DNA of 64,000 bases from Candidatus Pacearchaeota archaeon (lineage in GTDB: Archaea > Nanobdellota > Nanobdellia > Pacearchaeales > GW2011-AR1). Below, in pieces: positions 55,171 through 61,583 of the stretch. The notes under the pieces were generated by a model, which did not search any database, had not been told where the DNA came from, and saw only the letters and a list, made by a program, of their open reading frames with translations. The position numbers and the translations under genes were made by a program. Numbering within the stretch: the stretch's first letter is position 1; every line of letters starts with the position of its first letter. Where the stretch lies: the NCBI GenBank assembly GCA_026395815.1, contig JAPLXZ010000010.1:6659-70658 (forward strand), in the 5' to 3' direction.

Positions 55171-58100
55171 ATGCTTAATAAAAAGGGGAAGTCACTTATA
55201 GCTTTTGGAATTCTGCTTATTTGTATTGCTCTGCTGAGTTTGAGCTTTATCATCAAGGATAATTCTGTTATGAGTCTTAACACAGTTGCCTTGAATTACG
55301 GAGCAGAGCAAAGCAAGATAACATTTACATCTGAGAATAAGGCAATAGCAAAAGCAGAATTGTTAGTTCCTGTAGATAAGGTAAATTATGTTGAAGTGGG
55401 AAAAGACAGAATTGTCTTTAGTTTTAATATTGAAAGCCTTGAAGATTATACTAATGCTATTGGTGATGTTAAAATTCTAAACATGAAGACAGGAAAGGAA
55501 GAGGCAAAAACATACGAGATAGTTTATGCTGTTTATGGAGATGTTAGTGTTAATGATTACGATACAGTTTGTAAAGACGTTTATAATGAAGTGAATAAAA
55601 CAACAGACAATGTTTGTAAAAGAGAGGCTATAGGTTCTCACAAAGAAAGACAAATAGTAGAATGGAAGGAACTTACAGATAAAACCCTGCTCAAGGGGAA
55701 TATAACAATAGGTATTATGACTGACGTAGAAGAGGGAGATTATTACGACGGCATACCCATCTTATATGGCAAGGAAATAAGCAGATGGGTTACTTGGGAA
55801 GCGATAGTCAAAGATGTTATAGAAGATTATTATGGGACTAGTGAATCTGGATTGGGGATTGATGATACTGGTATGTGGGTGCAATCAAATTCTACTAACT
55901 GGCGATTAGTTGCATTCAATATCTCCGATAAAAGCCAAGGTACTCACTGTTATGCCTTTAGCAATGGTACTCCTGTAGAAGGGACATTGGAAGCAAATAA
56001 AACATGCTCTTTTTATTCTTCTTTGCCTATATTTTACAAATATAGTGAGGTTTATTTATTTGTAAACGTTACTTCTGGAGAAGTTAAACAAGTAAGGCAA
56101 GAAGTTACATCTACATTTATTAATTTTTCTTATATGATGACTATTCATTCGACTGGGGGCGGAGCTAATTCTACAACCAATATGATGACTATTGAAACTA
56201 TGTGGACACAGAGAGAAAGTTTAGACGAAACTCCTCCAACTGCTACAACTCCAACAATAACTCCTTCAAATCCGACAATAGCTAATAATTTACAGTGCTA
56301 TGCTACTCTTACGGATAATTTACAAACAAGCTTAACAGCATACTGGACATGGTATAAAGACGATGTTAGTTATTTATCAGGAAACACTTCTGTATCCAAC
56401 GGGATAAATAGCTTAATAACAACATTGGACTCAGGTAATACTGCAAAAGGAGAAGATTGGAAATGTGAAGTTAAACCTTATGATGGAGGTAATTATGGAG
56501 ATGCCAAAAATTCATCGATAGTAACAATTTTAAACACCATTCCAACCCAATCTAATCCTTCATTATCAACGCCTTCTGGAAAAAATCTTAATAATGAAGA
56601 TTTAACTTGTTATAATCAATCTACTTATGATGCTGATGGTGATGCAGTTACAAATGTTTACAACTGGTACAAGAATAATCAACCTTTAACGGTTTTGAAT
56701 ATGCCCTTGGAAATCGATGCTAATGATTATTCTGGAAAGGATAATGATGGAACAGTCTATGGAGCATCTTTTGCAGATGGAAAAGTTGGAAAAGCATTAA
56801 GTTTTGATGGAATTAATGATTATGTTGATATAAAAGATATCAATGAGGCTGAAGGAACAAATAGCTTAACAATAGAAGCATGGGTTAAACCAGAGACAAG
56901 AGCAACAGGAGTGGTTCATCCTATGATACTAGCAAAGTATTATGCATGGAACCTTTACATAAATGGCAACAATAATGGTTTTGCTTTTTCTTTTAATGAC
57001 GGAGGTGGTTGGGTTACTGATACTCTAAGCTATTCTGCAACATTATCAACCGATACATGGTACCATGTTGCAGTAAGATATGATGGCTCAACATGCAAAA
57101 TTTTTGTTGATGGTAATGAAGTAGCTTCTGGCACTTGTAATGGAAATATAATAACAAATACAAATAAAGTTAAGATAGGTCAATGGGATGGCAATGAATG
57201 GTTTAATGGTTCGATAGATGAAGCAAAAATTTATCCTTATACTCTTTCGCCAGAACAAATTAAGCAGAACTATGAAGAAACAAAAGATGGTTTGACCTCA
57301 AGTTCAAAAATTGTAAGCCAAGAAACAACAGGCGGAGATGCTTACATGTGCCAAGTTACTCCAAATGATGCTGAAGATGACGGAACAACACTTAATTCTT
57401 CAACAGCAGAAATTAAATGGGCGATAATGTTTGATGTTAGAAGTGGTGAAGATAATTCGTCATTAACTAGCTTTAATATAAATTGCAATAACTCTTTTTC
57501 AGCATCAGGAGTTAGTTCTCCTTATACTGCAGGATTTTTGCCTGGAAGTTATGAATGTACATTTTCTAAATTAGATTATTATGATAAGATACAAGTATTC
57601 GTAGCAGAGGGGGATAAGATCGTAAATGTAAAATTATCATATGAAAAACAATTAACAATCGAAGAACACAAATGGTTGGAGGCGATATACAATTGCCTGT
57701 TCTCAGGTGATTGTAGTCTCTACAACCTTTTGCTTGAGATGAATCAAACAATCGGAAAGATTTGGGAACAAACAAAACCAACAGATGAAACCGTTGTTGT
57801 TTTTGAAAATGTAACAAATAAGATCGTTGATAGTTCTAATAATCTAACAATTGATTATGCAGTTGATATTCCAATAAAGGCAGGTTATTCTTTGGGAGCA
57901 TATTTACCTGTAAGAATTGGATTTTGGTTTTTAGATGAAAACAACGAAACATGCTATAATCAAGGAGATAAACCAACAGAAGTTGAAGAGCCTTATTGCC
58001 AGCCATTAATTACAGAGGTAGTTGGTCCTATGGGCGGGCAAGTTAATTTTACAGTTGAGTTAAAACCTAATCTTCCATCTGGAGATTATAGCATTAAAAG

Positions 58101-61400: not shown

Positions 61401-61583
61401 GGAATAAGCCTTGTTGTAATAGTTATTTTTGTTGTTTTTGTTTTGTTAATAATCGCAGTTTCTATAATAATCTTAAGAAGAAGGGAAGAGAGATTAGAAA
61501 GGGAACTTAGAAGTCTAAAAAACAGGGGATCAGGAAAGAAATGGAAAAAATATTCAAAAAATAAGAAAAAAGAAAGATGGTAG
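58416..61583 (+). CDS. large cell-surface protein with 7 FG-GAP/VCBS-type repeats (integrin-alpha-like beta-propeller), C-terminal TM anchor and Lys/Arg-rich tail
   Basis: 1055 aa. Signal-like LYIFLFICFTFFLSSGFVRS. Seven Ca-binding-type blades are visible: GDLNGDDYPDLILTG, GDINNDGYLDLALSG, VDINNDGLLDLALTG, ADIDNDGDLDLALTG, GDYNNDGKIDLIETG, GDYNNDGNLDFVATG and ADLDNDKDLDLINIG. The C-terminal TM segment IVGISLVVIVIFVVFVLLIIAVSIIIL is followed by RRREERLE...KKWKKYSKNKKKERW. I count about 35 N-x-S/T sequons by eye. Confidence 0.75.
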   Translation: MVKKLYIFLFICFTFFLSSGFVRSQPYITSSYGLIENSSWESNLTAVRFSATVLGDLNGDDYPDLILTGCLSDGASDCNHGAISKVYINNGTTFNENLTWQQNLTGAGYGSLALGDINNDGYLDLALSGCPTGTEASCDNIFSKIYINNGTSFVESSQWQSNLTGVYSGSTKFVDINNDGLLDLALTGRASLTRISKIYINNGTSFVESSQWQSNLTGVRYSSLAFADIDNDGDLDLALTGVDSGSNNNGKIYLNNGTSLIYDSVWSINLLATNLGSLIFGDYNNDGKIDLIETGIGDYLYTFNNTGLTFIINQKNSGAGGDLGGGRYEGSSAFGDYNNDGNLDFVATGYEEGRSSLYYNNNSNFFIIDKGAGKGIHNVDMHQDSLVWADLDNDKDLDLINIGVNITSDIQALIFISNVSLTTPNTLPTPPSTFTSSYAGNQLLLTWNNGSDAETPSNGLYYNIMVGNSTTNNTVVSGIYGGSSGGGNAGGGADGYFGNMMQRKNITLDVQLNASETYHWYVQTIDTGLAKSSWSAAQNFTTSSDVTKPTVTVNPSSPDDGTYTTNPAFVFNASVIDANVANVTLYANWTGSMILNETNSSAISANYSFSKNLNGYSDGMYSWYIYACDTSSNCQSSGTRTFYLDRTYPLVYLESPASGDTWSSSSTVTFSYNVTDANIANCSLIIDGTVDQTDTTVTKSTSQSFIKTLSNGDYIWNVNCTDSVNYRNSSGTRSLTVSYTAPVTVNSPGGGGGGSTTKKPAVIPEFDVDFSNATTGSLEVKTGDVKTFSFNGEIEHSIAIMTLSTNSVTLIIASDPIIVQLNRGETKQVDINKDGINDFEIKLVSISNWKANILLTKLLGADIVGKEEIEQEIRKEALFDVKVSMQEGYKEVLAGNEVTAKIEVLNVNNIGQVDVTVDYYLSDKNTSDNKTVLSFGSDVLAVEAVASFVRSLRVPNETKPGTYFFDVDISYKNFTTSSSAEFRVENIKAIGTGIVGISLVVIVIFVVFVLLIIAVSIIILRRREERLERELRSLKNRGSGKKWKKYSKNKKKERW
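58845..58912 (+). repeat. 68-nt perfect direct repeat, copy 1 (inside the FG-GAP gene)
   Basis: aaaatttacataaataatggaacttcgtttgttgaaagttctcaatggcagagtaacctaacgggagt is identical to 59004..59071, at an offset of 159 nt (53 codons, one propeller blade). Confidence 0.95.
59004..59071 (+). repeat. 68-nt perfect direct repeat, copy 2 (inside the FG-GAP gene)
   Basis: Identical to 58845..58912. Both copies encode KIYINNGTSFVESSQWQSNLTGV. Confidence 0.95.
59384..59393 (+). repeat. poly-G (10 nt) homopolymer inside the FG-GAP surface-protein coding sequence
   Basis: Read directly: gat ttg ggg ggg ggg aga, encoding DLGGGR. It is in frame in this sequence. Confidence 0.95.

Follow-up and report, generated by a model that had tools for sequence, protein, structure and literature searches.

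A life spent in attachment to other cells is presumed for DPANN archaea, and two long adjacent genes in the genome of a Candidatus Pacearchaeota archaeon (assembly GCA_026395815.1) raise the question of whether they belong to a delimited surface device and, if so, what that device binds. The DNA analyzed here, referred to as the window, is a stretch of 64,000 nucleotides (nt) of contig JAPLXZ010000010.1 (positions 6,659 to 70,658, forward strand), from a metagenome-assembled genome (MAG) of 0.70 Mb in 17 contigs, with 32% GC, a completeness of ~86% and no archaeal small-subunit ribosomal RNA gene found in the assembly. An earlier, sequence-only reading had described the two genes as encoding giant, membrane-anchored surface proteins within a glycan island, the first with a LamG lectin-type block and the second with a seven-blade FG-GAP propeller, and had taken them for the likely acceptors of the island's glycan. 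The analysis presented here favors, with moderate confidence, the reading that the pair forms the first two genes of a conserved accessory surface cassette of Pacearchaeota-type DPANN archaea, encoding a glycosylated, calcium-dependent, lectin-type binding device that is autoregulated by a ribbon-helix-helix (RHH) protein. New relative to the earlier observation are the third gene, the operator-like repeat, the recognition of a conserved but rare accessory cassette, the linkage to glycosylation genes at every readable locus, and the conservation of glycosylation motifs across homologues.

Architecture of the two large surface proteins

The two co-directional open reading frames (ORFs) have the lengths originally reported (1075 and 1055 amino acids (aa)), and the 17-nt spacer between them (58399-58415) carries no obvious signal. 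A 19-residue Kyte-Doolittle scan found exactly two hydrophobic segments in each product, at aa 10-28 and 1047-1065 of the LamG protein, which ends in the tail SKTIIKLNKR, and at aa 4-22 and 1001-1019 of the FG-GAP protein, which ends in a 36-aa K/R-rich tail; the N-terminal hydrophobic segment and the C-terminal transmembrane helix with a basic tail proposed for both proteins were thus recovered. The description of the proteins as giant holds only in a relative sense, as the same 0.7-Mb genome encodes surface proteins of 1.3-2.2 thousand aa. Structures were modeled with AlphaFold2 from alignments of 80 (FG-GAP protein) and 44 (LamG protein) homologues, and the homologues of both proteins are labeled Nanoarchaeota or Pacearchaeota; these labels, the STT3/AglB gene and the genome size are the basis for placing the genome.

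The FG-GAP protein consists of a predicted Sec-type signal peptide (aa 1-23), a propeller, a stalk, a transmembrane helix and a basic tail. Six stretches of the propeller match FG-GAP_3 (PF13517; E 4e-31, 107.8 bits against a cut-off of 26.9), FG-GAP (PF01839) is matched with 53.3 bits against a cut-off of 22.1, the Big_7 Ig domain of the stalk likewise scores well above threshold, and seven loops of the pattern D-x-[ND]-x-D-[GDK]-x-x-D, one per blade, lie at aa 56, 116, 175, 228, 282, 336 and 390, at a spacing of 53-60 residues. Each of blades 1-5 also carries a short helix with a conserved Trp (W40, W100, W159, W212 and W266). In the model (mean pLDDT 84.4, propeller ~90-95), a signal helix is followed by the propeller, an FN3-like domain, two Ig-like domains, a Gly-rich linker, two beta-sandwiches, and a long transmembrane and cytoplasmic helix. 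The seven Ca-binding repeats noticed by eye are confirmed at the level of motif scan, Pfam and predicted structure, in which seven four-stranded blades with Asp-rich loops close into an FG-GAP/VCBS beta-propeller. The second membrane-proximal domain belongs to a C-terminal module common to many surface proteins of this archaeal order, and residues 870-1050, used as a query, returned many matches in relatives and in the window's own genome. An eighth Ca-loop-like motif (D-I-N-K-D-G-I-N-D, aa 830-838, window 60903-60929) lies outside the propeller, in a membrane-proximal beta-sandwich. Within the propeller, a 71-nt direct repeat (window 58842-58912 and 59001-59071) occupies the same part of blades 3 and 4; its two copies are 99% identical while the blade-2 copy is only 69% identical, a pattern suggestive of a recent event of gene conversion or of duplication of a blade.

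The closest whole-chain match in the Protein Data Bank (PDB) was integrin alpha-V (Foldseek, E ~1e-11 (9e-12), ~1000 aligned columns). As in integrin alpha subunits (alpha-V; 8xez_A, 6avu_A, 3ije_A), a seven-blade FG-GAP propeller with D-x-D/N-x-D-G-x-x-D calcium loops sits on a stalk of Ig-like beta-sandwich domains, and one C-terminal transmembrane helix leads into a cytoplasmic tail that is short and basic. Domain types follow each other in the same order in both, but the global TM-scores are only 0.23-0.27 and the identity 10%. Further differences are that the calcium motif is present in all seven blades compared with three or four in integrins, that there are five stalk domains instead of three, and that the tail lacks the GFFKR-type motif of integrins, reading LRRREERLERELRSLKNRGSGKKWKKYSKNKKKERW instead. 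Nor is a counterpart of the integrin beta subunit (vWA/beta-I) present, as neither protein nor its neighbors contain a vWA domain and the adjacent gene encodes the LamG protein. The integrin-like architecture probably arose by convergence or through the shuffling of domains in the VCBS supercluster of prokaryotes (PMC8023676). Integrin-type propellers are already known in prokaryotes (PMC3192720; PMC8023676), although those reported in bacteria by prior surveys lack a transmembrane segment and leg domains (PMC3192720).

At the level of the propeller domain alone, the best matches are CRTAC1 (TM-score 0.56) and the Psathyrella velutina lectin (PVL; 4up4_B), an N-acetylglucosamine-binding fungal lectin that likewise has seven blades with Ca-binding loops and is the PDB match of highest identity (TM-score 0.54, 20% identity, root-mean-square deviation (rmsd) 5.5 A). 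PVL and tachylectin-2 are lectin members of the VCBS/integrin-like propeller supercluster, and in tachylectin-2 a Trp-anchored helix comparable to those of blades 1-5 makes the sugar pocket (PMC8023676). Both are soluble single-domain lectins, whereas the product of gene 2 is multidomain and membrane-anchored, with putative sugar binding.

The LamG protein begins with its N-terminal hydrophobic segment, a beta-sandwich (aa 49-212) and a low-confidence, sequon-rich stretch (aa 215-349) that is specific to this protein, and continues with two Ig-like domains (aa 350-520), the LamG domain, a conserved C-terminal ectodomain and the transmembrane helix. The LamG block suspected from the sequence was supported by Pfam (Laminin_G_3, PF13385, aa 546-698; E 4e-28, 98.8 bits against a cut-off of 27.6), by the AlphaFold2 model (mean pLDDT 76.9 overall, >90 in the LamG domain) and by Foldseek. 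Its best domain-level match is domain 4 of AbnA, a GH43 arabinanase of Geobacillus (5hon_A; TM-score 0.78, rmsd 2.8 A, 22% identity), which shares the jelly-roll fold and is carbohydrate-binding in AbnA. The AbnA domain belongs to a secreted glycoside hydrolase, whereas no catalytic domain was found in the LamG protein with Pfam. Matches to the binding domains of clostridial neurotoxins in Foldseek reflect a generic jelly roll with low TM-scores, and a kinship with these toxins was rejected.

The best-conserved part of this family is not the LamG domain but the ectodomain at aa 745-1013, which is built of a beta-sandwich, a helical hairpin and a second beta-sandwich and contains conserved cysteines. 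Neither Pfam nor the sequences in PDB gave a match to it. An exhaustive search of 1.84 billion proteins returned 194 cluster representatives of this ectodomain, near the C-terminus in every match, in host proteins that are mostly 800-2500 aa long. Large, secreted or anchored LamG/ConA-like "lectin-like" proteins with many N-glycosylation sites are known from other DPANN archaea (Nanohaloarchaeota, ARMAN, SPEARE), where a role in systems of host-specific attachment is predicted for them and they form a loose class of lineage-specific and organism-specific proteins (PMC7443923). The LamG protein of the window differs from these in belonging to a defined family, with a C-terminal domain not represented in Pfam and a fixed cassette within an AglB cluster.

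Other modes of processing and anchoring were considered for both proteins. A class III (pilin-type) signal peptide is cleaved at the pattern [KR][GA][hydrophobic], and the N-terminus of the LamG protein (MLNKKG/KSLIAF) does not fit it by eye. The PGF motif that defines PGF-CTERM/archaeosortase substrates is absent from the C-termini of both proteins, which read ...AIGTGIVGISLVV... and ...LSGGQIVAIVAIIGG..., while some homologues carry the JGI label "PGF-pre-PGF domain". A C-terminal anchor module common to the two proteins was also rejected, as BLASTP detected no similarity between them.

Table 1. Features of the surface cassette, in window coordinates
Feature	Position	Strand	Description and basis
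TATA-box-like element	55137..55144	+	TTTATAAG; 27-34 nt upstream of the LamG ATG; sequence
Operator-like element	55149..55171	+	Tandem 10-nt repeats TGATTATTAA/TGATTATTAA and half-site TCA, reaching the A of the ATG
Gene 1	55171..58398	+	1075-aa type-I (or bitopic) membrane protein
LamG/concanavalin-A-like jelly roll (gene 1)	56749..57270	+	aa 527-700; Pfam PF13385, model, Foldseek
Conserved C-terminal ectodomain (gene 1)	57403..58209	+	aa 745-1013; alignment, model
C-terminal transmembrane helix (gene 1)	58306..58368	+	aa 1046-1066, short basic tail; hydropathy, model
Gene 2	58416..61583	+	1055-aa integrin-alpha-like type-I membrane protein
Seven-blade FG-GAP/VCBS beta-propeller (gene 2)	58494..59666	+	aa 27-417; Pfam, motifs, model, Foldseek
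Stalk (gene 2)	59715..60626	+	FN3-like aa 434-545 (highly conserved); two Ig-like aa 550-737; Big_7 649-737
Two membrane-proximal beta-sandwich domains (gene 2)	60738..61370	+	aa 775-985; model
Transmembrane helix and K/R-rich cytoplasmic tail (gene 2)	61395..61580	+	aa 994-1020 and aa 1021-1055; hydropathy, model
Gene 3	61577..61729	+	50-aa ORF; candidate RHH (CopG-like) regulator

A conserved but rare three-gene cassette

The order LamG gene, FG-GAP gene, small ORF is found in the window and at 10 further loci from several families of the order (L024, L028, L029, L030, L031, L033, L034, L035 and L046, together with L027, where the two large genes read through as one product of 1786 aa, P0019). 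Homologues number in the hundreds in a large database, where matches to the LamG family and to the FG-GAP family are apparently paired on one contig 17 times; on all eight of the paired contigs that were read, the LamG gene directly precedes the FG-GAP gene and glycosylation genes lie within 10 kb. Counted with one genome per species, six of the order's 251 genomes carry the marker domain of the LamG protein and six that of the FG-GAP protein. The two share a contig in five of the seven genomes that have either, and both exceptions fall where a contig breaks off. The cassette is thus a real but accessory unit, and since contigs often stop at these genes, it is probably more frequent than the counts indicate.

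Among 40 relatives, both proteins occur only in G040, a member of another family of the order, where the LamG gene again directly precedes the FG-GAP gene and the contig has the layout SecY - LamG - FG-GAP - ... - SpoIIM - AglB. AglB of the window's genome is 37% identical to that of G040 and 62% identical to that of G013, from the same genus, compared with 47-48% and 69-81% for the module, values that do not discriminate between vertical descent and lateral transfer. In G013, a propeller orthologue is split over two overlapping contig ends (L026 3-1858, L025 188-1177) in two reading frames, without a LamG partner and directly beside AglB - Glycos_transf_4 - flippase; either this copy is decaying or the split is an artefact of the assembly. 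A viral origin of the cassette was considered and rejected, as PHROGs returned only generic LamG matches to virion proteins and none for the propeller protein or the small ORF, and the GC content is uniform.

The small third gene and its putative operator

The third gene overlaps the stop codon of the propeller gene by 7 nt (ATGGTAG), and a small ORF occupies the same place at all 10 of the other loci, with 49-76% identity. Relative to the type-A loci (G040, L029, L030 and L046), the small ORF is more strongly conserved (68-76% identity) than its large neighbors (47-48%). Its predicted pattern of a strand (V-x-V-R/K-I-D), a helix, an E-N-R-F-D-F-P loop and a second helix suggests an RHH protein; a match to DUF7557 in Pfam is sub-threshold. 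RHH autorepressors of the CopG/Arc/MetJ type are likewise ~50 aa long with a strand-helix-loop-helix order, and their binding sites are repeats, tandem or inverted, that cover the promoter of their own gene. Gene 3 departs from the usual arrangement in being the last gene of its unit rather than the first and in having a longer loop (E-N-R-F-D-F-P), and its DNA binding is putative.

A candidate target is found upstream of the LamG gene, where a tandem 10-nt repeat with an inverted half-site lies between the TATA-like box and the start codon, which fits the RHH assignment. The repeat occurs only here in the window, where chance alone would give 0.02 matches, is the sole tandem copy in the genome, and is kept at the same place in L024, L029, L030 and L035; a second variant (GTTACA-n-TGTTAC-n-TGTAAC) takes this place in L028, L033 and L034. 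At all eight loci, the variant of the repeat matches the variant of the small protein's N-terminal strand (x-E-V-K/R-I-D versus A-V-I-R-I-D). An AAAG-TTTATA(A/T) element aligns across five loci, and since the TATA-like box lies so close to the LamG ATG, the transcript is inferred to be leaderless or nearly so.

Variations on the small gene were also seen. L030 has two tandem small RHH-like ORFs (12852-13016, 12997-13155) after its propeller gene. Distant paralogues of the small ORF (VVKIDSELLKRVE...NRLKF...FIDLAVNDFLK) occur in L039, L040, L041 and L044 (genera g26, g66 and g35 of the same family), at the ends of operons of four or five exported proteins, several of which have a C-terminal transmembrane helix and a basic tail; immediately 5' of these paralogues is a ~690-aa protein with 24-28 sequons.

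The surrounding glycan island

Glycosyltransferase and radical-SAM genes had been noticed on both sides of the pair, and this holds: a GT4 glycosyltransferase gene is immediately 5' of the cassette, a B12-radical-SAM gene and a GT2 gene lie on the 3' flank, additional radical-SAM genes are present on both flanks, and aminotransferase, dehydrogenase and thiamine diphosphate (ThDP) enzyme genes lie in the vicinity. Sugar-pathway genes continue unbroken from just after SecF/SecD (window 1996-4423) to Glycos_transf_4 and AglB (C2:84397-88205), beyond which follow SpoIIM, IF-2B, SecY and the ribosomal supercluster. This island (window 4913 to C2:88205, window coordinate ~81547) spans ~77 kb, or 11% of the genome, and contains GT2, flippase, epimerase, GHMP kinase, GT4, PMT_2 and cytidylyltransferase genes along with many B12-radical-SAM genes. 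The oligosaccharyltransferase gene STT3/AglB itself (C2:85401-88205) is 17 kb downstream of the cassette within the same island, with sugar genes throughout the intervening stretch; in the control set, STT3/AglB was matched only in archaea.

The linkage recurs elsewhere. GT2, flippase, PMT_2, B12-radical-SAM or nucleoside diphosphate (NDP)-sugar genes lie within 10 kb of the homologues at all 10 loci with readable flanks, the opposite of the consistent lack of linkage that would have spoken against a tie to glycosylation. AglB/STT3 is 0.2-10 kb from the cassette in five loci (L024, L026 (G013), L028, L029 and L031) and adjacent to it in L029. The position of the cassette within N-glycosylation clusters varies (beside AglB, beside SecDF, or mid-island).

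Two further observations concern the layout of these islands. SecF/SecD on one side and AglB-SpoIIM-IF-2B...SecY on the other bracket the island, and the same landmarks surround the cassette in L029, L031, L034 and L035, which suggests a conserved "surface island" slot between secretion genes. A PMT_2-type (GT-C) gene on the opposite strand is often found just 3' of the cassette (L027 5679-7307, L028 15221-16753, and L033 14464-16062, in the last with a B12-radical-SAM gene in between), and the window's own genome has one at C2:75216-76517; seen alongside the linkers of the surface proteins, which are rich in Ser, Thr and Gly, this arrangement hints at a further modification, either O-linked or lipid-linked.

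Sequons and predicted N-glycosylation

Sequons, defined as N-x(not P)-S/T, number 21 in the LamG protein and 35 in the FG-GAP protein, exactly as estimated by eye, and every one of them falls within the stretch enclosed by the two hydrophobic segments of its protein. The reverse motif [ST]-x-N was counted 16 times in the LamG protein and 19 times in the FG-GAP protein. Sequon density is 1.95 per 100 aa in the LamG protein and 3.32 in the FG-GAP protein, compared with 0.85 in the proteome. The enrichment over background that had been suggested for the pair stands for the FG-GAP protein, which exceeds shuffles of its own residues (z=3.98, p=0.0002). In sequon density, however, the FG-GAP protein ranks only 5th and the LamG protein 10th of the 36 proteins with a length of 300 aa or more that are predicted to be exported. 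Densities of 5-10 sequons per 100 aa are reached by others, among them surface proteins 1.3-2.2 thousand aa long. The notion that the pair are "the" acceptors of the island's glycan is therefore not upheld, and both are candidates for glycoproteins rather than outstanding ones.

Conservation is more informative than density. In the FG-GAP protein, 15 of the 35 sequons (N90, N103, N149, N256, N418, N582 and N673 being examples of conserved ones) persist in 88% or more of the 79 homologues compared, at an overall identity of ~48%, and position +2 toggles between the permitted residues (39 T and 39 S at N582, 44 S and 31 T at N673) while the middle residue varies. Such a pattern points to selection on the sequon itself for N-glycosylation. 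In the LamG protein, three of the 21 sequons (N858, N891 and N925) are kept in at least 88% of homologues and five more in 71-82%, while seven fall in the stretch at aa 215-349. With exported topology, sequons in the ectodomains and AglB in the genome, both proteins have the characteristics of AglB-dependent N-glycoproteins, and an attached glycan is predicted for each.

The use of sequons by predicted exported proteins of this genome is bimodal, an observation that concerns the loci C7:13910-18361, C14:4892-10936, C14:17150-19213 and C15:8214-10235. Several of the exported proteins have 5-10 per 100 aa. Two giants of 1483 and 2014 aa have 2 each compared with 17-18 reverse motifs, and sequons are entirely absent from three more exported proteins, 460-690 aa long, which looks like sequon avoidance.

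Proposed function and alternative explanations

In the favored reading, a single TATA box would drive transcription of the unit into a (near-)leaderless mRNA; Sec would export both large proteins, their C-terminal helices would keep them in the membrane, and AglB would N-glycosylate them at the conserved sequons with the glycan made by the surrounding island. The two proteins would jointly form a Ca-dependent, lectin-type binding device on the cell surface, whose target may be the glycans or glycoproteins on the surface of another cell (attachment to a host or partner), and the small protein would bind the tandem repeat covering the transcription start and thereby autoregulate the cassette. 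That LamG-type DPANN proteins with many sequons act as host-attachment factors has already been put forward in the literature (PMC7443923; 10.1101/2023.10.27.564410).

Several points weigh against this reading. It is the domain types that suggest binding, adhesion and cell-cell or host attachment, and the pairing of, and contact between, the two large proteins is itself inferred. The read-through product P0019 retains the transmembrane helix of the LamG protein and the signal peptide of the propeller protein and is topologically possible, but it is a single case at a contig end that could be a sequencing error, and so lends weak support to such contact. Glycosylation is less clearly indicated for the LamG protein, in which the sequon excess over own-residue shuffles is marginal and not significant (z=1.75, p=0.053), and some sequons of the FG-GAP protein (N-N-G-T, N-L-T) belong to the blade consensus, so that structural constraint may contribute to their conservation. 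As to the regulator, the matches to RHH_1 (PF01402) are sub-threshold (E 0.0045, 17.3 bits against a cut-off of 20.5) and were obtained for 2-3 members; PDB profile searches with two alignments returned nothing convincing (the RHH protein HP0222, 1x93, has E 0.79); and the co-variation of operator and regulator may reflect a single split into two clades. Finally, the cassette is missing from 14 of 16 genomes of the same genus and from all 77 of the high-quality genomes sampled, and it cannot be essential for the lifestyle of the lineage.

An alternative, considered unlikely, is that both proteins are structural envelope glycoproteins (S-layer-like or S-layer-anchoring) with no specific external ligand. 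Ig-like and beta-sandwich domains, a C-terminal transmembrane anchor and many sequons have been proposed as hallmarks of S-layer or anchor proteins in cultivated DPANN archaea (10.1101/2023.10.27.564410), and the membrane-proximal module that the FG-GAP protein has in common with many surface proteins of the order is also in keeping with an envelope role. However, the distal domains of the pair, a Ca-binding propeller and a LamG jelly roll, are typical ligand-binding modules, which at the domain level most resemble a lectin (PVL) and domain 4 of AbnA, a carbohydrate-binding domain. Envelope proteins would moreover be expected to be universal, and the structural reading is disfavored because the cassette is rare (~6 of the 251 genomes of the order, with most of its own genus lacking it).

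The lectin-type folds found by model and Foldseek would also suit a pair that recognized the glycan encoded by its own island, in self or kin recognition, homotypic contact, or the organization or quality control of the glycan coat. Such recognition, which is judged rather improbable, would explain why the cassette travels with glycosylation genes, as it occupies varying places within the N-glycosylation clusters of genomes that differ greatly. Archaea are known to recognize other cells by way of glycans, with Haloferax mating reportedly an example. Yet the glycan islands vary widely between loci while the lectin domains remain 47-70% identical, which fits poorly with a lock-and-key relationship to a variable self-glycan, and the linkage is equally explained by co-regulation or co-transfer of surface genes in a variable surface island.

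A more elaborate version of the cassette would be an integrin-like "outside-in" sensor in place of a passive adhesin, a heterodimeric LamG/propeller receptor that relays the binding of host glycans through its transmembrane helices and basic tails to the co-translated RHH protein, which would then release or occupy the tandem operator and possibly other surface-gene promoters. This idea draws on the distant paralogues of the small gene that close other surface-protein operons in related genera, and is quite improbable. Accidental juxtaposition, in which unrelated surface genes would have gathered in a sugar island (as surface and sugar genes often do in variable islands without functional coupling) with no functional tie to each other or to glycosylation, is scarcely credible, given that the same order, tight spacing, trailing ORF and promoter repeat recur in 10 other loci and that the marker domains so often share a contig.

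Significance for DPANN archaea

The attachment machinery of DPANN archaea is hardly defined beyond lists of "large lectin-like proteins", and the cassette, as a concrete candidate for a cell-attachment device, provides a delimited and testable unit with a fixed order, a family-defining domain, a candidate regulator and operator, conserved glycosylation sites, and a genomic home beside AglB. The FG-GAP protein is apparently the first clear archaeal case of the full integrin-alpha-type layout (Ca-binding propeller, Ig-like legs, transmembrane helix and tail), and thus bears on how often this architecture arose outside eukaryotes. As a rare unit that is often found at contig breaks, the cassette illustrates what MAG binning tends to lose, and it may mark strain-level differences in partner specificity.

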